Part shown: piece by piece, positions 4,041 to 42,978 of the stretch
Layout: each line of letters starts with the position of its first letter
How positions within the stretch are numbered: position 1 is the stretch's first letter
Assembly (NCBI GenBank): GCA_964412905.1
Contig: CAYPQL010000003.1
Span: 1 to 43,062, forward strand
Length of the DNA: 43,062 nt
Reading direction: 5' to 3'
Source: an uncultured Candidatus Saccharibacteria bacterium
GTDB taxonomy: Bacteria; Patescibacteriota; Minisyncoccia; JAHIHE01; JAGLIN01
Made by a program: the position numbers and the translations under genes
The notes under the pieces: generated by a model
The model's database searches: none
Told to the model about the DNA's origin: nothing
What the model saw: only the letters and a program-made list of their open reading frames with translations

Positions 4041-5798
4041 ATGGACGATCTTAATCAAAACAAAATTTACATAAGAGTGGACGAAGAAATTCCGTCCATT
4101 GTTAATAAAATAAAAAAATGCGCGGGGAGAGAAATAACCTTGATTATTCCCAGAAACGCGTTCATTTTGAATAATGTGATAAATTTAAAAATACTCAAGA
4201 AAGAAGCCGAGGGGCTGGATAAAAATATTTCGGTAATAACGGCTGATGACGGCGCTCCGATCAAAAATGAAAATATTTTCAGAGAAAGCGTAAAATATCC
4301 GAAAAGAAAAGCTGTTAGCTCTATTGTGAAAAATAATGAATTTTCAAAATTAGAAAAAGACAATGAGGCTGGTGATTTATTGGGTAAAAACAGCGAGCTT
4401 GACAGACCTTCTTTTGATGATAAAAATAGTGAAGCGGGAATAGCTCACAAAAAAATTGTAATGGTTGATGTTGTGAAAAAGGAGGTTCGCGAGCCTGAAG
4501 AGAAAAAAATATTCAATGAAAACTCATTTGAAAAACAGCAAGAAAATTTTGAAAAAATCAGCGCCACGGATGATAAGGCGCGCGAGAAAGAAAGATTCAT
4601 AAAACCTCTAAAAACCAAAAAAAGAACCATAACTCTTCCGTCAATAAGTTCAAAGATCGCGGCCCTGTTTATTTTCACAAGTTTTGTCGCGGTGTCTTTG
4701 GCGGTGGCGTTTATTCTTCCCAAAGCGGACATAGCCATTTCCCTAAAAACGGAAATCGCGCCTTATGATTTTGAATTCATAGCCGATGAGTCTTTGGAAA
4801 AAATCGATGCCGTCAACAGCAAAATTCCCTTGCAAAAAATAGAAGTTGCCAGCGAAGAATCCGAAACTTATCCTGCTACGGGGAAAAAACATATGCAAGA
4901 AGCGGCAAGCGGAGAAATCACGGTGTTTAATGAATATTCATCCACTCCCCAAAGAATCGTGGCTACCACGAGATTTTTATCCAAAGAAGGCGACAAGCTT
5001 TTTAGGACCAATGAAGCGGTAACTATTCCAGGGTTTTCAAGAGTGGAAGGAGTGGATGTCCCCGGACAAGTTACCATAAAAATTTACGCCGACAAGCCGG
5101 GAGAAGATTATAATATCGCGCCCACTTCTTTCAGCCTGCCCGGCTTGCAAGGATCGCCGAAATATAATTCCATTTACGCCCGATCAACCAAGGCGATGTC
5201 CGGCGGAATAGACAAGGAAGTTTTGTATTTCTCGGAAGGAGATTATATAACCGCCAAAGAAAAACTTTTAAAATTGGCCGGAGAAAAAAATGAAAAAGAT
5301 TTTTTGAGCAAAATTTCCGACCAATCTCAAATATTAGAAGACACGAAAAAAGAAGAAGAGCCTGAAATCAATACTAATGTTAAAATGGGAGCCGTCGCTG
5401 ATAATTTCCGGATGAATGTAAAATTAACAACTAGCGCCAATTTGATGCTGGAAGCTGATCTAAATGAAATTATAAATGAAAAACTAACTTCAAGGCTGGC
5501 GACGGATAAAAAATTTCTGGAAAATGGCAGAGATTATCAACTTGGCAAAATTACGACAGATCAAGACGGCAAAGTAATTATTCCGGCGCATATCAATCAA
5601 AAATTGATCACGAAAATTGACGCTGAAAATTTGAAAAAGGAAATAGCCGGCAAAAGCGAAGCGGAATTAAAAACTTATTTCGGCAATATGAGCGGAATAG
5701 AATCTGCGAATATAAATCTTTGGCCTTTCTGGGTTAAAAGCATCCCTTCCTCATATGAGAAAATAAATATAACTATTGACATAAATAATTCTATGTAG
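4041..5798 (+). CDS. Hypothetical protein with one central transmembrane helix
   Basis: 585-aa ORF with a charged N-terminal half, a hydrophobic segment (AALFIFTSFVAVSLAVAFIL) and a large C-terminal domain. Family not recognised. Confidence 0.6.
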   Translation: MDDLNQNKIYIRVDEEIPSIVNKIKKCAGREITLIIPRNAFILNNVINLKILKKEAEGLDKNISVITADDGAPIKNENIFRESVKYPKRKAVSSIVKNNEFSKLEKDNEAGDLLGKNSELDRPSFDDKNSEAGIAHKKIVMVDVVKKEVREPEEKKIFNENSFEKQQENFEKISATDDKAREKERFIKPLKTKKRTITLPSISSKIAALFIFTSFVAVSLAVAFILPKADIAISLKTEIAPYDFEFIADESLEKIDAVNSKIPLQKIEVASEESETYPATGKKHMQEAASGEITVFNEYSSTPQRIVATTRFLSKEGDKLFRTNEAVTIPGFSRVEGVDVPGQVTIKIYADKPGEDYNIAPTSFSLPGLQGSPKYNSIYARSTKAMSGGIDKEVLYFSEGDYITAKEKLLKLAGEKNEKDFLSKISDQSQILEDTKKEEEPEINTNVKMGAVADNFRMNVKLTTSANLMLEADLNEIINEKLTSRLATDKKFLENGRDYQLGKITTDQDGKVIIPAHINQKLITKIDAENLKKEIAGKSEAELKTYFGNMSGIESANINLWPFWVKSIPSSYEKINITIDINNSM

Positions 5799-8798: not shown

Positions 8799-9821
8799 AT
8801 GCAAAAAATAACACTGCCGGAAAAACCGATAATAACAAAAAATGACGGTAATTTCGCGGTTTTTGAAATCAGATCGTGCTATCCGGGATACGGTTCAACG
8901 ATAGGAAACGCCTTGCGCAGAGTTTTGCTTTCAAGCTTGGCGGGATCCGCTATAACATCAGTGAAGATTGCGGGAGCGAATCATGAATTTTCCACAATTC
9001 CGGGAGTGGTTGAAGACGCGGTTGAAATAATTCTCAATTTGAAAAAAATAAAATTTAAAACGCACACTGACGAGCCGGTAAAACTTAGCTTGAAGGTTTC
9101 CAAGGAAGGCGAAGTGAAAGCCTCGGACATAGAAAAAAATAGCGATGTGGAAATAGCCAATAAAGACGCTCATATCGCGACTATAACCGGCAAAGGAAGC
9201 GTTTTGGATATGGAAATGAAAGTGGAAAAAGGAATCGGCTATCTGCCCATTGAACAGCAGGATGAGAACAAGCTTGAAATCGGAAACATCGCGATTGACG
9301 CGATTTTCGCCCCGATAAGAAAAGTGAATTACAAAGTGGAAAATATGCGCGTCGGGAAATTAACAAATTACGACAAATTGATTTTTGAGATAGAAACAGA
9401 CGGAAGCATAACCCCCGAAGAGGCTTTTAAGGAAGCAACCAGATTGCTTGTGGAACATTTTAATTTATTCAGAGAAGTGATTGACCAAAAAACGGAGCAG
9501 AAAGAAAAAAGCGCGAAAATAGAGAAAAAGGAATTATTGAAAGAAGACAGGGAGGCGGAAAAAGAAAAAGAGAAAGAAGAAAAAGAAGAGAAAGAAGAAC
9601 AGCAAAAAGAAAGCAGCGAGGAAACTTTGAAAATGCCAGTTGAAGATATCGGCTTATCTTCCCGCATCTCAAAAATTTTAGCTGAAAATAAAATAAAGAC
9701 CGTTGGCAAGATTGTCAAAAAAGCCGAGGAAGATCTGCAAGAATTGCCGGGAATGGGAGATAAGGGCATTAAGGAAGTTAAAAAGGCTTTGGGAAAGTTC
9801 GGCTTAACTCTGAAAAAATAA
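8799..9821 (+). CDS. rpoA: DNA-directed RNA polymerase alpha subunit
   Basis: 340 aa. NTD motifs (G.T.GNALRR.LLSS..G.A...V.I) and a helix-hairpin-helix CTD (LS.R....L....I.TVG.....E.DL...P..G.K...E.). They are joined by a long Lys/Glu-rich linker. Confidence 0.9.
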   Translation: MQKITLPEKPIITKNDGNFAVFEIRSCYPGYGSTIGNALRRVLLSSLAGSAITSVKIAGANHEFSTIPGVVEDAVEIILNLKKIKFKTHTDEPVKLSLKVSKEGEVKASDIEKNSDVEIANKDAHIATITGKGSVLDMEMKVEKGIGYLPIEQQDENKLEIGNIAIDAIFAPIRKVNYKVENMRVGKLTNYDKLIFEIETDGSITPEEAFKEATRLLVEHFNLFREVIDQKTEQKEKSAKIEKKELLKEDREAEKEKEKEEKEEKEEQQKESSEETLKMPVEDIGLSSRISKILAENKIKTVGKIVKKAEEDLQELPGMGDKGIKEVKKALGKFGLTLKK

Positions 9822-9859: not shown

Positions 9860-10207
9860 ATGAAACATAAATCAAAAGGAAGGCAATTCAAGAGAAATAA
9901 ATCGCAAAGAAAAGCTTTAATGAAACATTTGTCCGAGGCGATTATTTTGCAAGAGAAGATTACTACGACCGCGGCCAAAGCGAAAGAGCTTTCTGTTCAT
10001 ATTGAAAAATTGATAACAACGGCAAAGAAAAATAATCTTTCAGCGGCCAAATCTATCCACAGCATTCTGTGCGATGAGGCTTCCAAGAAATTATTAAAAC
10101 AAATCTCCGACAGATATAAAGACAGAAGCGGGGGATATACGAGAATTATAAAAATAGCCGAGAGAAAAGGCGATGCCGCTCAAATGTCCGTGATAGAGTT
10201 TGTATAA
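9860..10207 (+). CDS. rplQ: 50S ribosomal protein L17
   Basis: 115 aa. Pattern MKHK.KGR.F.R...QRKAL...L...I....I.TT..KAKE plus GGYTRI.K...R.GD.A. Confidence 0.9.
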   Translation: MKHKSKGRQFKRNKSQRKALMKHLSEAIILQEKITTTAAKAKELSVHIEKLITTAKKNNLSAAKSIHSILCDEASKKLLKQISDRYKDRSGGYTRIIKIAERKGDAAQMSVIEFV

Positions 10208-10230
10208 ATCGTATTATTAGTTTATTAAAA

Positions 10231-10276
10231 ATTAACGAATTGCGGATTAACGGATTAAACTTTTTAATTCGTTAAT
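10231..10276 (+). terminator. Hairpin after rplQ (ATTAACGAATT ... AATTCGTTAAT)
   Basis: 11-bp perfect inverted repeat built from ATTAACGGATT words. There is no clean U-tract, so terminator function is uncertain. Confidence 0.35.
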
Positions 10277-10325
10277 AAATAATTTATAATGCAATACAAC
10301 AATTTAGCAATAAAGTATTAATTTT

Positions 10326-10757
10326 ATGCCGAAAGAAAAAATTAAGAATAAGAAAAAACTAATCCAAAGAGAATGGCATATTTTTGACGCGTCTGAAGAA
10401 AGTTTTGGCAGACTGGCGTCAAAAATCGCAATCTTGCTCAGGGGAAAAAATAAAGTAAGTTTTACTCCCCACATTGATAACGGGGATTATGTTGTCGTTG
10501 TTAATACTGATAATCTAAAATACACGGGAAACAAAGACGGCAAAAAAATATATTACAGCCATAGCTGGTATTTGGGAGGATTGAAAGAAATTACTTTGGG
10601 AAAGCAGATTGAAAAAGATTCAAAAATGGTTATAAAAATGGCGGTATATGGAATGCTGCCAAAAAATAAATTGAGAGATCAAATGATAAAAAGGTTAAAC
10701 ATATACGCCAAGAGCGAACATCCTTTTGAAAAAAAATTCAGTAAACAGCCTAAATAA
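10326..10757 (+). CDS. rplM: 50S ribosomal protein L13
   Basis: 143 aa. W...DA....GRLAS.IA..LRGK.K..FTPH.D.GD.VVV.N pattern. Confidence 0.95.
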   Translation: MPKEKIKNKKKLIQREWHIFDASEESFGRLASKIAILLRGKNKVSFTPHIDNGDYVVVVNTDNLKYTGNKDGKKIYYSHSWYLGGLKEITLGKQIEKDSKMVIKMAVYGMLPKNKLRDQMIKRLNIYAKSEHPFEKKFSKQPK

Positions 10758-10766
10758 ACATAAATT

Positions 10767-11177
10767 ATGAGCGAAAATAATGAAAAGTATTTTTACGCGA
10801 CGGGCAGGAGAAAATCCGCGGTCGCCAAAGTAAGGCTTTATGAAGATGATAAAAAAGAATCGTTGCTGGTGAATAACAAAGAATATAAAGATTATTTTTC
10901 CAACAACAGCGTTCTTATTGATAAAGTTTATTCTCCTTTTAAGCTTCTTCATCTTGAAAATAAATTCAGAGTCTCGGCGATGGTCAATGGCGGCGGGCCT
11001 AACGGCCAAGCCGAAGCGATCAGACTGGGCATAGCCAGGGCACTTTTGGTTTTGAATGAAGAATATAAAAAAGAGCTGAGAGCTTCTGAATACTTGACAA
11101 GAGATCCGAGAAAAGTTGAAAGAAAAAAGCCTGGACTCAAAAAAGCCAGACGCGCTCCGCAATGGAAGAAGAGATAG
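10767..11177 (+). CDS. rpsI: 30S ribosomal protein S9
   Basis: 136 aa. GRRK.AVA.V.L, GGG..GQA.A.R.GIARAL and a C-terminal TRD.R.VERKK.G..KARR..Q..KR. Confidence 0.95.
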   Translation: MSENNEKYFYATGRRKSAVAKVRLYEDDKKESLLVNNKEYKDYFSNNSVLIDKVYSPFKLLHLENKFRVSAMVNGGGPNGQAEAIRLGIARALLVLNEEYKKELRASEYLTRDPRKVERKKPGLKKARRAPQWKKR

Positions 11178-11200
11178 GATATATAAAAATAATATTTTTA

Positions 11201-11237
11201 AAGCAGGCGATTCTCGAGGGTCGCTTGTTTTTTTGTT
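11201..11237 (+). terminator. Intrinsic terminator of rplM-rpsI
   Basis: AAGCAGGCGA pairs with TCGCTTGTTT (with G-T pairs), followed by a T-run. Confidence 0.55.
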
Positions 11238-11322
11238 TGTTAATTTAACTTTCCATTCGTTGGCTCTAGTTTTCTAACCAGAGCCTTTTGTTAAATTTCT
11301 TCAAACAATCTTAGCGCAAAAT

Positions 11323-11370
11323 AAAACATAGTGTCTTTTAGGACGATCGTCCTGAAAGACACTATGTTTT
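11323..11370. terminator. Long perfect palindrome, bidirectional terminator-like
   Basis: AAAACATAGTGTCTTT.AGGACGA / TCGTCCT.AAAGACACTATGTTTT, flanked by an A-run and a T-run. Confidence 0.6.
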
Positions 11371-11381
11371 ATTTTTTCGGT

Positions 11382-11508
11382 TTGACTATTTTACTCAATA
11401 TGCTATTTTACCAATAGAAAATGAATCACAATTTATTAACCTAAAACCTCTGGGCTTTTTGTTTGGAGTATGGTTTAAAATCCATTCACACAAAAGCGGT
11501 CTTCTGAT
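11382..11508 (+). promoter_or_regulatory. Repeated promoter-plus-leader module, copy 1 (upstream of the AntA-like gene)
   Basis: TTGACT (11382-11387), N16, TGcTATTTT. Then a conserved ~90-nt leader containing the mini-ORF ATGAATCACAATTTATTAACCTAA (11421-11444) and the AACC..CTCT..GGAG..GGTT helix. Confidence 0.6.
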
Positions 11509-11533
11509 GAATAAATTATTTTCGTAAAATCTT

Positions 11534-12499
11534 ATGAATGAAATAATAAATATTAAGGTAGTTCAAAAAACAATAGACAATGAGAAAAAGCGATTTGTGA
11601 ATGCGCGAGAATTGCATAAGTGGCTAAAGGCAGGTAAGTTTTTTGCTAACTGGATAAAAGACAGAATAGAGAAGTATGATTTTACAGAGGGTACAGATTT
11701 TTTTAAAGTGATACCATATAAAGAGTTGAAGCAAGCTAAAGATTTTGATCTCGCAATTTTAGGAAATCGAAATGAAGAGCTGAAACAAGCCAAAAGTTTT
11801 GATTTGCCAAATCTGGCAAATCAAAAGTCAAAACGAGGCGGAGATGTAAGAAGCATAGATTATATTTTAACAATTGATATGGCAAAAGAGATAGCGATGC
11901 TTGAAAATAATGAATTAGGCAAGAAGGTGAGAAAATATTTTATCAGAACGGAGGAGCGATTCAAAGAGGTTATGCGCGTGGCTTTAAATAATCCAAAATT
12001 TGTTAATCAGCTTTCTGAAGATTTTAAGGAAACAAGAGAAGAGACAAAGGATTACAGAAAAGATTTTACGGACAGCATAAAAAAATGCGTCTCGGCTAAA
12101 TTTTATGGAACTTACACGGATATGCTGTATAAGTTTTTATTTGTAGAAAGGGCGAAGGAATATAGGAAATTATTAAATTTAGCCAAAAAAGATTTAACCA
12201 GAAATACAATGTATGAGGAGATATTGTTTATCATTGGTAGTTTTGAAACGGGCTTAGCTGGGGAGTTGGAGAAAAAATATAAGAAAAAAGAAAAGCGTTT
12301 AAATCAGCAAGAATTTATAAAAACTTTTGAACAATTTTCTTCAACGCAAAACTGGGATGCTTATAAAAAGAGGGTTAGAAAAATAATGGCGACTTATGAC
12401 GAGGAATTAAGAAATATCAAGCATCCGAAGTTGATTGATTATAGAAAAGAGTTCACAAGCGAGGATATTAAAAAACTGCTGGGGCATAGTGGCGTTTGA
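11534..12499 (+). CDS. AntA/AntB-type antirepressor-like protein (phage-derived N-terminal domain)
   Basis: 321 aa. The N-terminal ARELHKWLKAGKFFANWIKDRIEKYDFTEGTDF matches the AntA domain pattern. A tandem internal KQAK.FDL repeat follows. Confidence 0.6.
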   Translation: MNEIINIKVVQKTIDNEKKRFVNARELHKWLKAGKFFANWIKDRIEKYDFTEGTDFFKVIPYKELKQAKDFDLAILGNRNEELKQAKSFDLPNLANQKSKRGGDVRSIDYILTIDMAKEIAMLENNELGKKVRKYFIRTEERFKEVMRVALNNPKFVNQLSEDFKETREETKDYRKDFTDSIKKCVSAKFYGTYTDMLYKFLFVERAKEYRKLLNLAKKDLTRNTMYEEILFIIGSFETGLAGELEKKYKKKEKRLNQQEFIKTFEQFSSTQNWDAYKKRVRKIMATYDEELRNIKHPKLIDYRKEFTSEDIKKLLGHSGV

Positions 12500-12518
12500 A
12501 ATGAAATATTAAAAACAT

Positions 12519-12554
12519 AAAACACTATGGTAATATGAATTATCATAGTGTTTT
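12519..12554. terminator. Palindromic terminator AAAACACTATGGTAAT-ATGA-ATTATCATAGTGTTTT
   Basis: 12-bp stem (one G-T pair) flanked by A4 and T4. Member of the CTATGATAAT palindrome family. Confidence 0.65.
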
Positions 12555-12566
12555 ATTGCTTGCTCG

Positions 12567-12690
12567 TTGACTTTTTTACTCAATATGCTATTCTACCGAT
12601 AGAAAATGAATCACAATCTATTAACCTAACCTCCGGGCTTTTTGTTTGGAGTATGGTTGAAATTCTAGAGTATAGAAGCGGTCTTCTGAT
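12567..12690 (+). promoter_or_regulatory. Repeated promoter-plus-leader module, copy 2 (upstream of the KilA-N gene)
   Basis: TTGACT (12567-12572), N16, TGcTATTCT (12589-12594). The leader is near-identical to copy 1, including the mini-ORF, which carries a synonymous TTA-to-CTA change. Confidence 0.6.
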
Positions 12691-12708
12691 AAAATTCAAA
12701 ATAAAAAT

Positions 12709-13539
12709 ATGGCGAATCAAAAAATTATTGTTCAAAATACTGAAATTGTTTTGTTTTCGGAGGGAAAGGATGATTTTATATCTTTAACTGATATTGCTAA
12801 ATATAAAAATTCGGAGTTTCCGGCGGACGTGATAAAAAATTGGATGAGAAATCGCGGGACTATAGAATATCTGGGATTGTGGGAGAGGATTAATAATCCG
12901 AATTTTAAACTGGTCGAATTCGACGAGTTTAGAAATGAGGCAGGGAGCAATTCGTTTGTGCTTTCTCCTAAAAAATGGATTAACCATGTTAATGCCGCGG
13001 GGTTGATAAATAAAGCGGGGAGATATGGCGGCGGGACTTTCGCGCATAAGGACATTGCTTTTGAATTTGCTTCATGGATTTCAGCGGAGTTCAAGCTGTA
13101 TCTTATAAAAGAATTTCAGAGGCTTAAAAGCGATGAAAATGTTCGCTTAAAGCTGGATTGGAGCGCGAAAAGATTTTTAGCCAAGGCAAACTATCGCGTG
13201 CATACGGACGCCGTGAAGGAGAAATTAATTCCGGCGCAAATTTCAAAAAAGCAAATCAAGATGATTTACGCGGACGAAGCCGATGTCCTGAATGTGGCGC
13301 TTTTTAGCCAAACCGCGAAAGAATGGAGGGACAAGAATTCCGGCAAAAAAGGCAATATGCGGGATTACGCGGATATTATCCAGCTGGTATGCCTTGCCGG
13401 GCTGGAAAGTCTTAATGCGGAGTTTATCAGGCAGGGAATTGATCAAGGCGAAAGATTAAAAAAGCTAAATAAGATTGCGATTATTCAGATGAGGGCGCTA
13501 ACTATGGATAAAAACGGAAGGAAGATTTTGACTAAATAA
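12709..13539 (+). CDS. KilA-N domain-containing protein
   Basis: 276 aa. Matches the KilA-N pattern: ISLTDIAKYK, NWMRNRGTIEYLGLWE..NNPNFK, GRYGGGTFAHKDIAFEFASWISAEFKLYLIKEFQRLK. Confidence 0.8.
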   Translation: MANQKIIVQNTEIVLFSEGKDDFISLTDIAKYKNSEFPADVIKNWMRNRGTIEYLGLWERINNPNFKLVEFDEFRNEAGSNSFVLSPKKWINHVNAAGLINKAGRYGGGTFAHKDIAFEFASWISAEFKLYLIKEFQRLKSDENVRLKLDWSAKRFLAKANYRVHTDAVKEKLIPAQISKKQIKMIYADEADVLNVALFSQTAKEWRDKNSGKKGNMRDYADIIQLVCLAGLESLNAEFIRQGIDQGERLKKLNKIAIIQMRALTMDKNGRKILTK

Positions 13540-13564
13540 AAATAAGATTTAAAGATAAAAATAT

Positions 13565-13603
13565 AAAACACTATGGTAATATGAATTATCATAGTGTTTT
13601 TTT
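13565..13603. terminator. Palindromic terminator (same sequence as 12519)
   Basis: AAAACACTATGGTAATATGAATTATCATAGTG followed by T7. Confidence 0.65.
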
Positions 13604-13613
13604 GTTTTTTGGT

Positions 13614-13716
13614 TTGACTTTTTTATTTGGCGTGCTATTCTACCAACAGAAAATGAATCACAATTTAGAAACCTAACCTTCGGGCTTTTTTGTTTGGAGT
13701 ATGGTTGAAATCCTAG
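13614..13716 (+). promoter_or_regulatory. Repeated promoter-plus-leader module, copy 3 (no ORF of its own downstream)
   Basis: TTGACT (13614-13619), N16, TGcTATTCT (13636-13641), then the conserved leader (mini-ORF MNHNLET). It is followed immediately by a separate promoter. Confidence 0.55.
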
Positions 13717-13731
13717 AACACATTTATTTAT

Positions 13732-13759
13732 TTGACACAATTTTTTTAACTGCTACAAT
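13732..13759 (+). promoter_or_regulatory. Promoter TTGACA-N16-TGcTACAAT for the riboswitch transcript
   Basis: TTGACA at 13732-13737, TG at 13751-13752, TACAAT at 13754-13759. Confidence 0.6.
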
Positions 13760-13778
13760 GCGATCAGACAATTAAATA

Positions 13779-13946
13779 AGTTTATCCAGAGTACGGCGAG
13801 GGAACTAGCCCCAAGACCCGTCAGCAACCCTTGAATGGTGATTCCATCAAGAAGGTGCTAATTCTAGCCCTAAAAAGGAAAGATACAGGTCGTTTTTTGT
13901 TTTTCTGGAACAAAAATATCTTTCTCTTCTCGGGAAAGATTTTTTA
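13779..13946 (+). promoter_or_regulatory. SAM-I (S-box) riboswitch with terminator expression platform
   Basis: The aptamer core matches the S-box consensus blocks: TTATCCAGAG, GGCGAGGGAACTAGCCC, AGACCCGTCAGCAACC, GGTGCTAATTCTAGC, GGAAAGATAC. The terminator is ATCTTTC (13918-13924) / GAAAGAT (13934-13940) plus a T-run. The same ATCTTTC can instead pair with GAAAGAT (13878-13884) of the aptamer 3' strand, acting as an antiterminator. Confidence 0.85.
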
Positions 13947-13967
13947 ATTTTCTAAATATAAAACACA

Positions 13968-14699
13968 ATGGAAAATAAATTTAAAGAGCTATGCGATTTT
14001 TATCTTTTAGACGGTAAGTTATTATATGTTTCTCGAGAGTTTATAGGTTTTGATCCTGTTATCAGTAAGGGGTTGTCTTGTGAACGCAATAAAAAAAGTA
14101 ACACTACAATTAAGCTTGATGAATTTAAATTGGGCGATTCTTCGTTTAATGCCATCCTGACAAACCATATTAGCTGGGGACCGTTAAGCGGGTATCGGCG
14201 GGCAGAGATATTAAGAAATGGCAGGACTATCATCAACTATGAACATGGCGGTATGGGACACGGGTCGAACTATTGTAAGGGAAATTATTTTCATTTGGAA
14301 AATGGAAATGCTTTTCTGCTAAAAAACGGATATGCGCTCAGAGATGTATCTACTGACAAAATTTATTCAAACCTTAATCATGACAATGATTATTTATTTT
14401 GGTTCAAGGATGTAGTCATTCCCATTGCGGGCAAATTGTGGCCAGTTGATGGCAGTGCGTTAGATTATGACAAAATTTACCATCGCGCCGAAATCGAACC
14501 GCTAAGGCAAATTCAATGGGATGCGCATGTAAATTTTAATAGCCAGCATATTTATATCAAAAAAACGGCGGTTCCATATTGTTGGCAAACTTTATGGGAA
14601 TCCGCTAATAAATATGAGGAATTCAAAAGAATGGATCAAGAGGGTTTTAGGGCGCTGGGCAGGATAGAGTTTAACGATATTGGTTTTGAGAGATACTAG
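13968..14699 (+). CDS. Hypothetical protein (riboswitch-controlled), family not recognised
   Basis: 243-aa ORF 20 nt after the riboswitch terminator. Soluble and Trp/His/Gly-rich (HGGMGHGSNYCKGNYFH). No motif I can name. Confidence 0.6.
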   Translation: MENKFKELCDFYLLDGKLLYVSREFIGFDPVISKGLSCERNKKSNTTIKLDEFKLGDSSFNAILTNHISWGPLSGYRRAEILRNGRTIINYEHGGMGHGSNYCKGNYFHLENGNAFLLKNGYALRDVSTDKIYSNLNHDNDYLFWFKDVVIPIAGKLWPVDGSALDYDKIYHRAEIEPLRQIQWDAHVNFNSQHIYIKKTAVPYCWQTLWESANKYEEFKRMDQEGFRALGRIEFNDIGFERY

Positions 14700-14794
14700 T
14701 TAATTTTTTGGTGAAAAATTTGTGAATGAAACCTGTTAAAATGGCGGGACTTGTGATATAATTAAATTAATTAATTAATGGTTAAACTAAAAAT

Positions 14795-15130: not shown

Positions 15131-15232
15131 AAATATGATTGAATATGTGGTTATTGGATTGCCTGACTGATTATGGGGACTTGTGGTATAATGGAAATGG
15201 ATAATGATTAACTATATAATTGAATAAAAATT

Positions 15233-15996: not shown

Positions 15997-16833
15997 ATGG
16001 CGGAATACAAAAAACTAAATACTAATGATTTTAAGGAATTTGAAGATAAAAATAAGAAATACAAAGAAGGAATATTTGAGCTTCAGCTTAATTCTTGGGA
16101 TGAGTTTTGCGATGTTGAAAAAAAATTCAATGATTATCCGGACTATATCTGGAGGGGACAAAAAGAAGATTGGCAACTTAAATCTTCGTTTGATAGAAAT
16201 TCTTTTACAAAAAAATTTTCATATCTTTTTGGCAGACAAAAAGTAGTTGATAAATTGCTTGAAAAATTTAAAAAGAAACTTCTTGATTTGCCAAGAGCTA
16301 CTATTTCTAATGATGATGACGGAATATGGGCAATAGGACAACATTATGGCTTGCCAACACCTTTGCTTGACTGGACGACAAATCCTTATATTGCAGCTTA
16401 TTTTGCTTTTTATGAAAGAAAGACAAATGAAAAATATAGAATTGTTTATGCTCTTAGTAAATCAGTAAAACAACTTAAAGCAATAAAGAAAGATTTAAAA
16501 AAACAAAAACTATCAAGTGAACCTTTTCTTGAGTTTCTTGATTTGATAGAGACTCCTGATAAAATACAAAATATAAGGTTAGAAAAACAGGAAGGAAGAT
16601 TTACTAAATCTTTAAACGGAATAGATATTGAAAGCAATGTAAAAAAATATGCGAAGAAGCGTCCTGCTATTGTTTCAAATAAAGAAATATTGCTTATGAA
16701 AACTTTTATACCTGACATACTACGAGAGGAATTTTTAAAGTATCAAAAATTCAAAGATATCACTTATGGTAAACTGTTTCCCGATTACGCAGGTGCGGTT
16801 GATATTTGCAAAATCGATTTAGGTATAGTATAG
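15997..16833 (+). CDS. FRG domain-containing protein
   Basis: 278 aa. YIWRGQKEDWQLKSSFDR and GQHYGLPTPLLDWTTNPYIAAYFAF match the FRG-domain signature. Confidence 0.7.
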   Translation: MAEYKKLNTNDFKEFEDKNKKYKEGIFELQLNSWDEFCDVEKKFNDYPDYIWRGQKEDWQLKSSFDRNSFTKKFSYLFGRQKVVDKLLEKFKKKLLDLPRATISNDDDGIWAIGQHYGLPTPLLDWTTNPYIAAYFAFYERKTNEKYRIVYALSKSVKQLKAIKKDLKKQKLSSEPFLEFLDLIETPDKIQNIRLEKQEGRFTKSLNGIDIESNVKKYAKKRPAIVSNKEILLMKTFIPDILREEFLKYQKFKDITYGKLFPDYAGAVDICKIDLGIV

Positions 16834-18738: not shown

Positions 18739-19053
18739 ATGATTTCTTTTAAAATAGAAAATAATTTGCTTATACTTATTTATGACTCATTTGATAGTAA
18801 TAATAAGTGGGTTTATCAGGAACTAGACAAAAAAGGAAAGTATACTTTTAAAAAGATTTTTACTTTTTTAAAAAGTGATTTGTATAAAGTTAATTCAAAT
18901 GAACTTGAAAATGATTTTGATAAACCTGTAGAATTTATTTTTGCAAAATTAGTAGAAGATTATTTTAAGGTTGAAAAAAGAGTGCTATCAATAGATCAAA
19001 GCTTGTTTATTTACAAAAGCATAATATTATCATCAAAGTTTTTTGTTGCTTAA
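18739..19053 (+). CDS. N-terminal fragment of a Shedu-type protein (frame-shifted relative to 19221..19931)
   Basis: 104-aa ORF. The downstream DUF4263 reading frame is already open from 18975 and overlaps this ORF by 79 nt. Confidence 0.5.
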   Translation: MISFKIENNLLILIYDSFDSNNKWVYQELDKKGKYTFKKIFTFLKSDLYKVNSNELENDFDKPVEFIFAKLVEDYFKVEKRVLSIDQSLFIYKSIILSSKFFVA

Positions 19054-19220: not shown

Positions 19221-19931
19221 TTGGAAAACTATTTTAATAAAGTGATTGATGGCAAAGAAAAATACAACCGTTACATGAATAAAAAAATTAGTCGAAAAGG
19301 AGATAATTTGACAGACATGTTTTTAGATAGTGAACTAATAAAATATGAAATTATTTTACGAAAACTTGAGGAGATGTTGAAAAATGAAAATAAATATATC
19401 GAAAAGCAATGGCAAAAAGAAATACTCCAGATAATTTTACTTTTATATCCGAAATATATACATGTTTTCCCTGAAGCACCTGTAAGAGACACTTATAATA
19501 ATAAAAATAGAAGTATAGATTATTTGTTGGTCGATTCAGTTGGAAATACTGATATCATTGAGGTAAAGAGACCTTTTGGCAATGACATTGTATCAAAAAA
19601 ACAATTTAGAGATAATTATATTCCTATAAAAGAGTTAATTGGTACAGTCATGCAAGTTGAAAAATATATTTTTTACCTAAATAAATGTGGAAAGAAAGGG
19701 GAAAATAAATTAACAGAAAAATATAAAGAAATACTTCCAAGCGGATTAAAAATAAAGATTACTAATCCTAATGGCATTATTATTATGGGACGAGACAATA
19801 AGCTTAGTTCAATTCAAAAACAGGATTTTGAAATAGTAAAAAGAAAATATAAAAACATAATTGATATTATGACTTATGATGATTTACTAAGAAGATTACA
19901 ATTTATAATAGCAAAGTTTAAGCTTGAATAA
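19221..19931 (+). CDS. DUF4263 / Shedu-type PD-(D/E)xK nuclease domain protein
   Basis: IDYLLVDSVGNTDIIEVKRPF (D..EVK nuclease motif), GIIIMGR and a C-terminal IMTYDDLL are typical of DUF4263. The only in-frame start is a TTG, and the frame is open 246 nt further upstream. Confidence 0.65.
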   Translation: MENYFNKVIDGKEKYNRYMNKKISRKGDNLTDMFLDSELIKYEIILRKLEEMLKNENKYIEKQWQKEILQIILLLYPKYIHVFPEAPVRDTYNNKNRSIDYLLVDSVGNTDIIEVKRPFGNDIVSKKQFRDNYIPIKELIGTVMQVEKYIFYLNKCGKKGENKLTEKYKEILPSGLKIKITNPNGIIIMGRDNKLSSIQKQDFEIVKRKYKNIIDIMTYDDLLRRLQFIIAKFKLE

Positions 19932-37902: not shown

Positions 37903-38652
37903 ATGACAGGAAATAATGTGAGAAATTATAGAAAAAATTGGTTTTCCGTACAGCTAAAGCCCGCAGGAAATACCTGCAATTTAAGATGCAATTATTGCTA
38001 CGCAAAATCTCATTTAGCAAGCGGAAAATTAATGTCTGAAGAAATATTAGAAGCTACGATAAGAAAAATCATTGAACAAGATTACGCATACCCGACATTT
38101 AGTTGGCACGGTGGAGAACCTACTCTTATAGGTTATGAATTATTCGAATATGCCATGCAGCTAATGAACAAATATAAGCGGCATGGGCAGACTGTATATA
38201 ATTTAATACAAACCAACGCTACAAAGATTAATCCGGAATTAGCAAAGCTTTTCAAGAGAAATAATTTCGGAATCAGTATTAGTCTTGATGGTCCTGAAAA
38301 CATGCATGGATTAAACAGAAAATTCATAAATGGCAAGAATTCATTTGTGGAAGTCCTGAAAGGAGTAAAAATTCTGAGAGAATACGAAATTGAACCCTCG
38401 GTTATTTGCACCGTGTCGAAAGGCAATCTGCCGCACGCTACGGAAACTTTTGATTTTCTGATATCGCAAGGTTTTAAAAAAATAAAATACAGTCCGGTTT
38501 TTGATTCTGTAAAGGATAATTTTAGCGTAACCAGCGAAGAATGGTTTGAATATTTAAAAAAATATTTTATCGCTGGTTTGAAATCGGTAATCCGGAAATT
38601 CAAGTTAGAGATTTGGATGAGGTTATTGTTTGGCTGTCAAATACTTCTCTAA
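37903..38652 (+). CDS. Radical SAM protein, anaerobic-sulfatase-maturase-like core; SPASM part frame-shifted and truncated
   Basis: CNLRCNYC (CxxxCxxC), GGEPTL, QTNATK and SISLDGP..H motifs. After the A7 run (38556-38562) the homologous sequence continues in another frame (FYRWFEIGNPEIQVRDLDEVIVWLSNTSLNLCSSNKTCLNWISVNPKSNL) and stops at 38715-38717. Confidence 0.7.
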   Translation: MTGNNVRNYRKNWFSVQLKPAGNTCNLRCNYCYAKSHLASGKLMSEEILEATIRKIIEQDYAYPTFSWHGGEPTLIGYELFEYAMQLMNKYKRHGQTVYNLIQTNATKINPELAKLFKRNNFGISISLDGPENMHGLNRKFINGKNSFVEVLKGVKILREYEIEPSVICTVSKGNLPHATETFDFLISQGFKKIKYSPVFDSVKDNFSVTSEEWFEYLKKYFIAGLKSVIRKFKLEIWMRLLFGCQILL

Positions 38653-39918: not shown

Positions 39919-40027
39919 TATAAGGTTTGATATTTAAATTTTTGTGAAAAAGTTAAAATAATATCAGTTGAAAAATTAAGTTGGGTTGGACTATTATTAG
40001 AAAAAATTGATAAACTATATTAAAAAT

Positions 40028-41443
40028 ATGAGTTATAATAATATAAAAAAGGTTGGATGGGGATTTGGCAGATGCAACCAAAAATGTAAACATTGTTATA
40101 ATAATTCAAAAGCGACCGGAGACATATATACTTTCAGCCAGTTAAAAAATGTGGCAGATAAAATATGTCCATTTATAGAAGATATAAACTTTGGAACAGG
40201 AGAATTTATTTTTAATCCAAACACGCTGGATTTAGCTGAATACATCAAAGACAAATATCCTAAAATAAAAATGTCTGTTACTTCCAACGGATCAACTATT
40301 GTGATGATGCGCCCTAAAAAAATTAAAAAGATATTTAACGATGTTGATGTTTCACTGGATTTTCCAGATAAAATAAGACATTGTGAATTCAGAGGGCATC
40401 CTAGGGCATGGGATTTGGCGATGGATTCGTTAAAAATACTTAAAGAAGAGAATATAAATCATACGATAGTGTCTTGTATCACTTCCCAAACTACCGATGA
40501 AGATATTTCAAGTTTATTAAAAATAAGTAAAGAATACAACGCAAGTTTTAGAATGAACTGGTTTAGATGCGCCGGGAGAGGAACTAACGAATTAAGAATT
40601 TCAGCAAAAAGAGCGTGGGGAATTATAGAATTTCTTTCCGAAAAAGTCATTTTTAGTTGCATAGACTCTATTTTCGCCGGAGTATTGGGGATAAAAGCTA
40701 GTAGTTGTCCCGCCGGAAGAGAGAGCTGCAGAATACATGAAGATATGCAAGTGTCATGCTATCCTTTTCTTAAGGGAGATATGTGGTCAGCCGGAAACAT
40801 TATGAGAAAAGAAATAGATCTTGATACGGTTTATAATTCCAAAATATTCAAAAGAATAAGAAACAGAAAAATATCTTTTTGCAGAGACTGCGATTTCAAA
40901 AATATATGCAAAGGAGGTTGTGTTACCATGGCATATTTGCATAATGGAAAAATAGACGAGGTTGACGACTATTGTCCCGTGAAAGCAAATCTCGACATAG
41001 AAAAATTGAAGAAGATAAAGATTAAATTTAATCCCAACAAAGATTTTGTTCACAACGGTTATCTATGTACTACCATTTGCACTGCAAATGTATGCGATTC
41101 CTCTAAAGAATATTTGAATAAAAATGTCAAAGTTATTATGGACAGGCCATTAAATAGTTTACATCCAAAATACGGATTTAAATATGAATTGAATTACGGA
41201 TATATACCGGACACCATAAGCGGAGACGAAGAAGAATTAGACGCTTATGTTCTCGGAGTTGACAAGCCGATAAAAGAATTTGAGGGAAAATGCGTGGCAA
41301 TAATTCATAGGCTTAATGATGACGATGACAAATTAATAGTAATACCCAAAGACATGAAAAATATAACTGACGAAAAGATACTTGCTAAAACTAATTTTCA
41401 GGAAAAATATTTTAAAATTGAAATAATCAGACCTGAAGATTAA
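40028..41443 (+). CDS. Radical SAM/SPASM-domain protein fused to a C-terminal family-I inorganic-pyrophosphatase-like domain
   Basis: CNQKCKHC cluster motif and a Cys-rich SPASM-like region (CPAGRESC...C..C.....CKGGC......DDYCP). From about 41123 it reads IMDRPLNSLHPKYGF.YELNYGYIPDTISGDEEELDAYVLGVDKP...F.GKCVAIIHRLNDDDDKLIV, resembling the short PPase family. The ORF track starts at TTG 40007. Confidence 0.7.
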   Translation: MSYNNIKKVGWGFGRCNQKCKHCYNNSKATGDIYTFSQLKNVADKICPFIEDINFGTGEFIFNPNTLDLAEYIKDKYPKIKMSVTSNGSTIVMMRPKKIKKIFNDVDVSLDFPDKIRHCEFRGHPRAWDLAMDSLKILKEENINHTIVSCITSQTTDEDISSLLKISKEYNASFRMNWFRCAGRGTNELRISAKRAWGIIEFLSEKVIFSCIDSIFAGVLGIKASSCPAGRESCRIHEDMQVSCYPFLKGDMWSAGNIMRKEIDLDTVYNSKIFKRIRNRKISFCRDCDFKNICKGGCVTMAYLHNGKIDEVDDYCPVKANLDIEKLKKIKIKFNPNKDFVHNGYLCTTICTANVCDSSKEYLNKNVKVIMDRPLNSLHPKYGFKYELNYGYIPDTISGDEEELDAYVLGVDKPIKEFEGKCVAIIHRLNDDDDKLIVIPKDMKNITDEKILAKTNFQEKYFKIEIIRPED

Positions 41444-42099: not shown

Positions 42100-42978
42100 A
42101 TGCAAGACATCTATATAAACTATGATGATATAGAAAAGTTTAAAAAGAAAGCGGAAGTGAAAGTAGCGATTGTAGCCAGACCTGATTGGTTTATGAAAAA
42201 AGCGAAGCTTCAGCATTTAATAGTTGAGACTAAACTAGGCACTCATGATAGATTCTATCTTACGGAATATGATGGAAAAAAATTCGTAATAGTTTATGGA
42301 AGATTTGATAGGATTAGATCTATGTCATCTGATATAGACTACGAATTAACGCAAGAGGCAATATCTGCTATCGGGATAGAAACAATTATTGGAACATTTG
42401 TCGCGGGTTCCATAAAAGACGATGACTTTGCGGGGAGCGTGTATATTCCACATGATTTTGTAGGAATGGGTAATTATTCCCAGACTCGCAACAGAAATGG
42501 GTTTAAAAATGTGGATATGTTCACTCCGTTCTGTGAGGAAACCAGGCAGAAGTTGATCTTAGCTACCAAAAAAGTACCTTTTCCTGTGAACAATAAAGGA
42601 ATCTATGTATGTTTTCACGGCTATCCTAGGATAGAAACAAAAGCAGAATTGGATTTCTACGGAAGAATGGGATGGCACATGGTGGGGCAAACACTTGATC
42701 CTGAAGCAACTCTTGCGAAAGAAGCCGGCTGCCATTATTCAGCTATTGTCGCAACAATCGACGATAGAAAATTAAGGCAAAAATTTATGAATAATGATGG
42801 TGAAGCGAAAAGAGAAATAGAAAGCAATATCGCAGGAGGGAGAAAAAAGACTTTCGAAATATTCACGGAGTCTTTAGAAGAGCTGATAAAAGACAATTAT
42901 AACTGTAATTGCCTTGAGCAACAGAAGCATGTATTAGGAAAGAACAAACATTTCTATTATATGCCAATGCTTGATTGA
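42100..42978 (+). CDS. Divergent MTAP / purine nucleoside phosphorylase family protein
   Basis: 292 aa. GTFVAGS, TPFCEE.R, YVCFHGYPRIETKAEL, MVGQTLDPEATLAKEAGCHYSAIVATIDD parallels the MTAP pattern (GP.FET.AE, GMT..PE..LA.E.G..Y). The N-terminal phosphate loop is atypical (VAIVARPDW). Confidence 0.6.
   Translation: MQDIYINYDDIEKFKKKAEVKVAIVARPDWFMKKAKLQHLIVETKLGTHDRFYLTEYDGKKFVIVYGRFDRIRSMSSDIDYELTQEAISAIGIETIIGTFVAGSIKDDDFAGSVYIPHDFVGMGNYSQTRNRNGFKNVDMFTPFCEETRQKLILATKKVPFPVNNKGIYVCFHGYPRIETKAELDFYGRMGWHMVGQTLDPEATLAKEAGCHYSAIVATIDDRKLRQKFMNNDGEAKREIESNIAGGRKKTFEIFTESLEELIKDNYNCNCLEQQKHVLGKNKHFYYMPMLD

Follow-up and report, generated by a model that had tools for sequence, protein, structure and literature searches.

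A SAM-I riboswitch precedes a gene for an orphan protein family on a mobile and defence island of an uncultured Patescibacteria genome

The locus and its leader

The DNA analysed here, referred to as the window, is a stretch of 43,062 nucleotides from an uncultured Candidatus Saccharibacteria bacterium. Within it an island of about 9.5 kb (roughly 11.2–20.7 kb) is inserted after rpsM–rpsK–rpsD–rpoA–rplQ–rplM–rpsI and before housekeeping genes. The chromosome is that of a member of the Patescibacteria, the best named matches to its RpoA (76–80% identity) being from Patescibacteria group, Ca. Pacebacteria and Parcubacteria. The island holds, in order, an AntA-type gene (11534), a KilA-N-type gene (12709), an open reading frame for a 243-residue protein that we refer to as X, a DUF6804 gene (14795), a gene for an FRG-domain protein that matches the candidate defence family PDC-S15 (15997), and the C-terminal part of the Shedu gene sduA (19221). 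The elements that surround and include the gene for X are as follows.

13732–13759 (+): sigma-70-type promoter, TTGACA-N16-(TG)-TACAAT, for the riboswitch leader
13779–13889 (+): SAM-I (S-box) riboswitch aptamer
13875–13928 (+): antiterminator helix, in which 13875–13885 pairs with 13917–13928 and encloses a small hairpin at 13894–13916
13918–13946 (+): intrinsic terminator, a 9-bp hairpin at 13918–13940 followed by a U-run at 13941–13946
13968–14699 (+): 243-aa open reading frame for X, a member of an uncharacterised protein family that is predicted to be all-beta

A preliminary description, made from the sequence alone, had proposed that a SAM-I riboswitch with a transcriptional OFF platform and its own promoter controls an unassignable 243-aa protein in an accessory island, and we find that this observation is correct. 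A significant match to the Rfam model RF00162 had been set as a condition for the proposal to stand. Scanning the whole window against Rfam 15 at gathering thresholds returned three hits, two tRNAs and RF00162 at 13779–13889 (+), the latter with a score of 58.6 bits against a gathering score of 44.4 (E 3.6e-11) over the full model (positions 1–108). All of the S-box consensus blocks that had been picked out beforehand lie in this hit, and the core blocks align to the consensus. The outer three P1 pairs are non-canonical and P4 is short, which is why the score is moderate rather than high. The promoter matches 11 of 12 consensus positions, has an extended −10 TG, and is the best in the region; a TGnTAnAnT-like −10 element lies at the same distance upstream of the aptamer in the leaders of homologous genes.

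The three heptamers on which the proposed switch had been based, GAAAGAT at 13878–13884, ATCTTTC at 13918–13924 and GAAAGAT at 13934–13940, are at exactly those positions, and folding reproduced the terminator/antiterminator logic. In the ligand-free minimum-free-energy fold of the whole leader, 13875–13885 pairs with 13917–13928; this helix uses the 3′ strand of P1 and so competes with the SAM-bound aptamer. The distal segment alone folds into the terminator (−10.8 kcal/mol, z −2.5), which was also found by a terminator scan and is followed by TTTTTT. In one respect the earlier picture needs correction: no terminator was found between the gene for X and the DUF6804 gene, and hence read-through into the latter cannot be excluded. 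The DUF6804 gene has its own extended −10 element, which is repeated before the next gene as well, and it is not conserved next to homologues of X. We also asked whether repeats of about 100 nt upstream were remnants of tRNA or att sites by aligning them to the tRNA of the homologous locus L003 (see below); they are unrelated to it and are instead repeated terminator–promoter–leader cassettes.

Conservation of the switch and of its linkage to X

Whether homologues in other genomes are also preceded by SAM riboswitches had likewise been named in advance as a test, and we therefore traced the closest homologues of X to their contigs (loci are designated here by L numbers and proteins by P numbers). 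A SAM-I aptamer lies in the same position, about 70–300 nt upstream of the start codon, in four sets of loci: L001 (X homologue 67% identical; aptamer 58.5 bits), L003/L005/L006/L018 (60% identity for L003/L018; 67.3 bits), L009 (62%; 66.3 bits) and L013 (32%; 64.2 bits). The longest distance, about 300 nt, is in L009, where a 79-aa open reading frame intervenes. In a fifth locus, L010, the contig starts inside a terminator platform homologous to those of L001 and the window, and only this platform remains. A sixth, L007, from a Bacteroidota-like contig, encodes a homologue (P0009) that is 46% identical to X and differs from the others in two ways: its aptamer is of the SAM-I/IV class (RF01725, 63.8 bits) with a strong terminator, and X is followed after 73 AT-rich nucleotides by metK. 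No terminator-like hairpin was evident in this gap on reading the sequence, although a terminator scan was not run on L007, and the two genes form an apparent operon.

The leaders align along their whole length, and hairpin-plus-U-run elements equivalent to that of the window are present in L001, L003, L009, L013, L007 and the truncated L010 leader. Mean pairwise identity is 0.71 in the aptamer as compared with 0.42–0.51 in its flanks, and, among only five leaders, eight of 23 predicted aptamer pairs keep pairing through changes on both sides, with compensatory changes in P2 and P3. Thus, the aptamer is a functional, inherited regulatory element and not a chance match.

On a neighbour-joining tree the riboswitch-bearing members fall in three separate places: a clade comprising the window protein, P0002, P0004, P0005 and the truncated P0006; P0043 (L013); and P0009 (L007). 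Meanwhile, six other loci (L012, L014, L016, L020, L021 and L022/23), about half of those that could be assessed, have no riboswitch upstream of X, even in a permissive E-value scan for sub-threshold matches. Among the 13 loci scanned, no Rfam riboswitch other than those of the SAM clan was found upstream of any X gene. The link to SAM is therefore recurrent but not universal, and it is either ancestral with losses or was recruited more than once. SAM riboswitches precede only a very small fraction of genes in any genome, and we infer that independent chance association in three clades is negligible.

An all-against-all BLAST comparison of open reading frames from the loci showed that X is the only gene conserved downstream of the switch. 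The next gene differs from locus to locus, being DUF6804 in the window, a 143-aa open reading frame in L003, a 74-aa open reading frame in L001 and metK in L007. The only neighbours that recurred, in two loci (L001 and L003), were a Dcm-type methyltransferase gene and vsr. A Pfam search with the immediate neighbours gave nothing.

An orphan protein family

Searching a set of 5.8 G proteins returned 10 homologues, and a profile search of 1.84 billion cluster representatives returned only 48 family members, all of them metagenomic hypothetical proteins (Patescibacteria and Bacteroidota). The few that carry names are from Ferruginibacter or Chitinophagaceae MAGs or from unclassified bacterial MAGs. 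Further scans of genomes and metagenomes added only two and three loci, respectively. No member was found on IMG/VR contigs or, by tblastn, among INPHARED phages or PLSDB plasmids, and so there is no evidence that the family is carried by catalogued phages or plasmids.

A search for the family and fold of X had also been proposed at the outset, and neither could be assigned. X and divergent members had no match in Pfam, NCBIfam, PHROGs or PADLOC (PADLOC-DB v2, five family members, 0 hits, whereas the neighbouring FRG/PDC-S15 and SduA genes did hit). All 35 members scanned singly against Pfam at E ≤ 10 share no family, and profiles built from two alignments of the family gave no hit to PDB sequences. 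Hence X is not matched by the models for known Met/SAM enzymes and transporters (MetK, MetE/H, MtnN, MetNIQ and others). An AlphaFold model based on 10 close sequences was unusable (pLDDT 53.7), but one based on a 35-sequence alignment was confident (AlphaFold2, pLDDT 93.1, pTM 0.88). The predicted structure is almost entirely beta, with two meander sheets at about residues 45–120 and 181–237. Foldseek found nothing significant in PDB (best E 0.14, TM ≤ 0.2) or in BFVD (best E 0.023, TM ≤ 0.24, to unrelated proteins), the two collections searched.

Near-invariant positions are mostly glycine, proline and aromatic residues (G27, P30, G71, P72, G94, G99, F146, P152 and W184). Only a few polar residues (K17, S33, E80, E175, E177 and R180) are kept in about 70–85% of members, and there is thus no obvious catalytic constellation. 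The proteins are cytosolic in character and are not acidic (pI 5.3–9.4, net charge −8 to +10). One member has an unassigned N-terminal extension of 195 residues.

Genomic company of X

Almost every context is a mobile or defence island rather than a metabolic operon. L003 has an island at the same chromosomal site as the window, downstream of rpsI, with a serine recombinase gene next to the riboswitch and a Dcm-type methyltransferase gene and vsr downstream, whereas L001 has genes for a HaeIII-type endonuclease, a Dcm methyltransferase and Vsr upstream of the switch. L013 has an OLD-family ATPase-nuclease; L014, a PLD nuclease and MmeI-type restriction-modification; L020, PDDEXK, AAA, DUF2779 and WYL genes; L022, a T4SS coupling protein; L012, a DnaB-like helicase and a reverse transcriptase; and L010, a Panacea-domain antitoxin.

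A model for the cassette and for the function of X

We are highly confident that the leader is a standard SAM-I riboswitch that works as a transcriptional OFF switch. In this view, transcription would start about 10–20 nt upstream of the aptamer, from the promoter at 13732–13759. When SAM is bound, P1 would form, leaving 13917–13928 free to pair with 13930–13940, and the terminator hairpin with its U-run would stop RNA polymerase before the gene for X. When SAM is scarce, the 3′ strand of P1 would pair with 13917–13928 as an antiterminator, and X would be made. Neither SAM binding nor ligand-dependent switching was assayed, and the mechanism rests on the covariance-model match, the alternative folds and the conserved platforms. 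We are nearly as confident that promoter, riboswitch and X form a self-contained unit within the island and that X is the gene that the switch is there for.

What X does is a matter of inference, and we offer the following only tentatively, as we do the model as a whole once this step is included. X most likely helps the cell, or the element that carries it, to cope with SAM shortage, by restoring, sparing or redirecting the SAM supply on which the methylation of element and host depends, possibly by acting on or with MetK or on a SAM by-product or precursor. X would then be an accessory “SAM-economy” gene and not a core biosynthetic enzyme. SAM-I regulons consist of genes for Met/Cys/SAM synthesis, salvage and transport; X shares a riboswitch-led unit with metK in L007, and it lies next to SAM-consuming Dcm-type methyltransferases in L001 and L003. 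Moreover, co-expression with metK argues that X is not toxic. Against this reading are the lack of similarity, by sequence or fold, to any known Met/SAM enzyme, transporter or binding protein, the lack of a catalytic constellation, the loci without a riboswitch, and the mobile or defence contexts. As to whether the gene downstream of this SAM-I switch belongs to Met/Cys/SAM metabolism or transport, the absence of X from all such families and the pairing of one homologue with metK point in different directions and leave the matter undecided. The sequence, folding and comparative evidence establishes the aptamer, its platform and its recurrent linkage to X, whereas the role of X is our inference from that linkage and from its neighbours.

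The preliminary description had also suggested that X has either an unrecognised SAM- or methionine-related function or a mobile-element function tuned to SAM level; our results support that interpretation but do not separate its two alternatives. It had been stated beforehand that the idea would fail if homologues were never associated with SAM or methionine regulons, and the SAM-clan riboswitches upstream of homologues, one of them in the apparent operon with metK, show such an association. To it we add the conservation of the linkage in three clades and with two aptamer classes, the absence of a riboswitch from about half of the assessable loci, and the orphan nature of the predicted fold.

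Alternative explanations

An alternative that we consider unlikely but do not exclude is that X is an immune or counter-counter-defence factor for which the riboswitch serves as a SAM-depletion alarm. Phage SAM lyases of the T3 SAMase type drain SAM to disable SAM-dependent restriction, BREX and methylation, and that they counter restriction-modification is established (PMC7877911). A collapse of the SAM pool driven by a phage or plasmid, through SAM lyase or MetK inhibition, would be read directly by the RNA, which would release an orphan-fold effector that protects SAM-dependent defences, blocks the invader, or neutralises the SAM-degrading or MetK-inhibiting phage protein. If so, this would be the first riboswitch-gated anti-phage or counter-counter-defence gene, and a new protein fold. 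In keeping with this idea, X lives in defence islands, it is a single-gene cassette with its own sensor, its OFF-at-high-SAM logic fits a trigger on SAM loss, and its adjacency to metK in L007 fits a MetK-protecting role. On the other hand, X has no PADLOC hit and no recognisable nuclease, NTPase or pore-like feature, co-transcription with metK would induce it at every ordinary SAM dip, which is hard to reconcile with a toxic abortive-infection effector, transcriptional induction may be slow relative to infection, and we found no precedent in the literature.

Somewhat less likely is that the mobile element has co-opted the switch merely as a nutritional or growth-state sensor for a gene whose biochemical function has nothing to do with SAM, such as element maintenance or transfer. 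Consistent with this, half of the family has no riboswitch, members occur in a conjugative-element context (L022) and in phage-like operons (L014 and L016), and the repeated promoter cassettes of the window island suggest modular shuffling of regulatory parts. However, the same signal was recruited in three clades and with two aptamer classes, X is placed next to metK, and only SAM-clan riboswitches were found upstream of X genes in the loci scanned.

Less likely still is that X is a safety factor for C5-cytosine restriction-modification modules. When SAM is limiting, C5-methyltransferases deaminate cytosine and so become mutagenic, and a Dcm-type enzyme can no longer protect DNA; X would be induced to restrain the cognate endonuclease or methyltransferase or to limit the damage. 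The logic of the switch fits, and the Dcm-type methyltransferase with Vsr recurs in L001 and L003, where the X proteins are 55% identical, the methyltransferases are 37% identical, and the gene order differs. No methyltransferase or restriction gene, however, is near X in the window, L007, L009, L013, L016, L020, L021 or L022, and X is not acidic. None of these three alternatives could be excluded computationally. Finally, that the aptamer is a decayed or chance match with no regulatory role, as its moderate score, non-canonical outer P1 pairs and short P4 might suggest, is very unlikely given its E-value and the maintenance of aptamer and terminator in orthologous leaders.

Relation to known systems

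Riboswitch-linked genes of unknown function have repeatedly led to new biochemistry, because the ligand says what the protein is about. If X is a new component of SAM homeostasis, this would matter for ultra-small, auxotrophic Patescibacteria; if not, SAM level may be used as an infection or stress signal by mobile elements, and both possibilities are directly testable because the cassette is small and self-contained. The riboswitch is a new member of the SAM-I class, which is itself well understood; what is without precedent, as far as we could find in full-text literature searches, which returned no report of this family or of a SAM riboswitch on a defence or mobile-element gene, is the recurrent tie between a SAM-clan riboswitch and an orphan-fold family on mobile and defence islands of Patescibacteria and Bacteroidota.

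The leader shares with the S-box leaders of met/cys/SAM genes in Bacillota (e.g., the metK, metE and mtn operons of B. subtilis) the four-helix aptamer, the competition of P1 with an antiterminator, the intrinsic terminator that follows, and the resulting lack of transcription at high SAM. It differs in that the host is a member of the Patescibacteria, the regulated gene belongs to no known Met/Cys/SAM family, and that gene sits on a mobile or defence island as a single-gene cassette. SAM-I/IV riboswitches (RF01725) are found upstream of metK; in L007, X is interposed between such a riboswitch and metK in the same transcription unit, whereas the window has a SAM-I aptamer and no metK nearby.

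With the conflict between phage SAM lyases and restriction-modification or BREX, X shares a mobile-element and defence context in which SAM is the contested resource, and it neighbours restriction-modification modules. It has no sequence or fold similarity to SAM lyases, however, whether of the T3 or the Svi3-3 type, as judged by the PHROG, BFVD and PDB searches, and a SAM-degrading enzyme would not sensibly be induced by low SAM. We also considered anti-restriction DNA mimics such as Ocr and ArdA, as well as pentapeptide-repeat mimics. X is not such a mimic on grounds of charge, and its predicted all-beta structure has no match to these folds, although it shares with them an island and leading-region-like context, and one family member (P0026) is fused to pentapeptide repeats.

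Repeated Regulatory Cassettes in the Island

A cassette of about 170-180 nt occurs three times in the window, at 80-90% identity. It consists of a terminator hairpin, a TTGACT-N16-TGCTATTCT promoter and a ~75-nt leader with a conserved hairpin (AACC..CCTCC / GGAG..GGTT). The copies are as follows:

11318-11500, copy 1, leading into the AntA-like gene (11534)
12502-12685, copy 2, leading into the KilA-N gene (12709)
13548-13732, copy 3, which breaks off at about 13716

Copy 3 ends just where the riboswitch promoter begins, as if the cassette of the riboswitch and X (the gene it precedes) had replaced a third gene. The promoter of copy 3 could also read into the riboswitch. Meanwhile, downstream of X, a repeated extended -10 element, GGGACTTGTG(A/G)TATAAT, lies at 14746-14775 and at 15176-15205, in front of the DUF6804 gene (14795) and the next gene (15233), respectively. 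Genes of the island seem to carry individual, shuffled promoters.

A comparison of positions 9860-13967 of the window with positions 1-6000 of L003, a contig bearing a homologue of X, revealed that both genomes carry their X-bearing island at the same chromosomal site, downstream of rplQ-rplM-rpsI. L003 has a tRNA (1862-1948), to which the repeated cassette is not related, and a serine recombinase (4387-5703) at this site, which suggests an integration hot spot in these Patescibacteria.

Other Genes in the Window

Three genes downstream of X, at 15997-16833, is a gene for an FRG-domain protein that matches the PADLOC candidate defence family PDC-S15 strongly (E 4.5e-60). The match to Shedu SduA at 19221-19931 (and 18739-19053) covers only profile positions 162-397 of 402 and starts at a TTG codon. 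Given that the N-terminal part is missing or split off, this may be a truncated or degraded Shedu gene. Farther along the window, a 478-aa ORF at 40007-41443 combines a radical-SAM domain with a C-terminal match to inorganic pyrophosphatase, which is an unusual pairing. A second radical-SAM gene lies at 37903-38652, and a PNP_UDP_1 phosphorylase (possibly an MTA or purine nucleoside enzyme) lies at 42100-42978.

Variation among Homologues of X and Their Loci

Two fusion forms were found in the X family. In P0026 (530 aa) the N-terminal ~200 residues of X are joined to about 190 residues of pentapeptide repeats, whereas in P0031 (433 aa) X is preceded by an unassigned 195-aa domain.

The loci of other homologues also differ in their surroundings. 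In L009 a 79-aa ORF (1768-2007) with no family match is inserted between the SAM-I terminator and X, and its end overlaps the X start codon. In L010 a gene with an HTH and a SocA/Panacea antitoxin domain is followed 9 nt later by a 130-aa ORF (together at 1165-2252), and the two form a likely PanA-type toxin-antitoxin pair downstream of the X homologue. Finally, L013, the contig that carries the divergent riboswitch-X cassette, has a LOOT RNA hit (RF03000, 70.2 bits) at 9236-9353 on the minus strand, among small unknown ORFs and an OLD-family gene.
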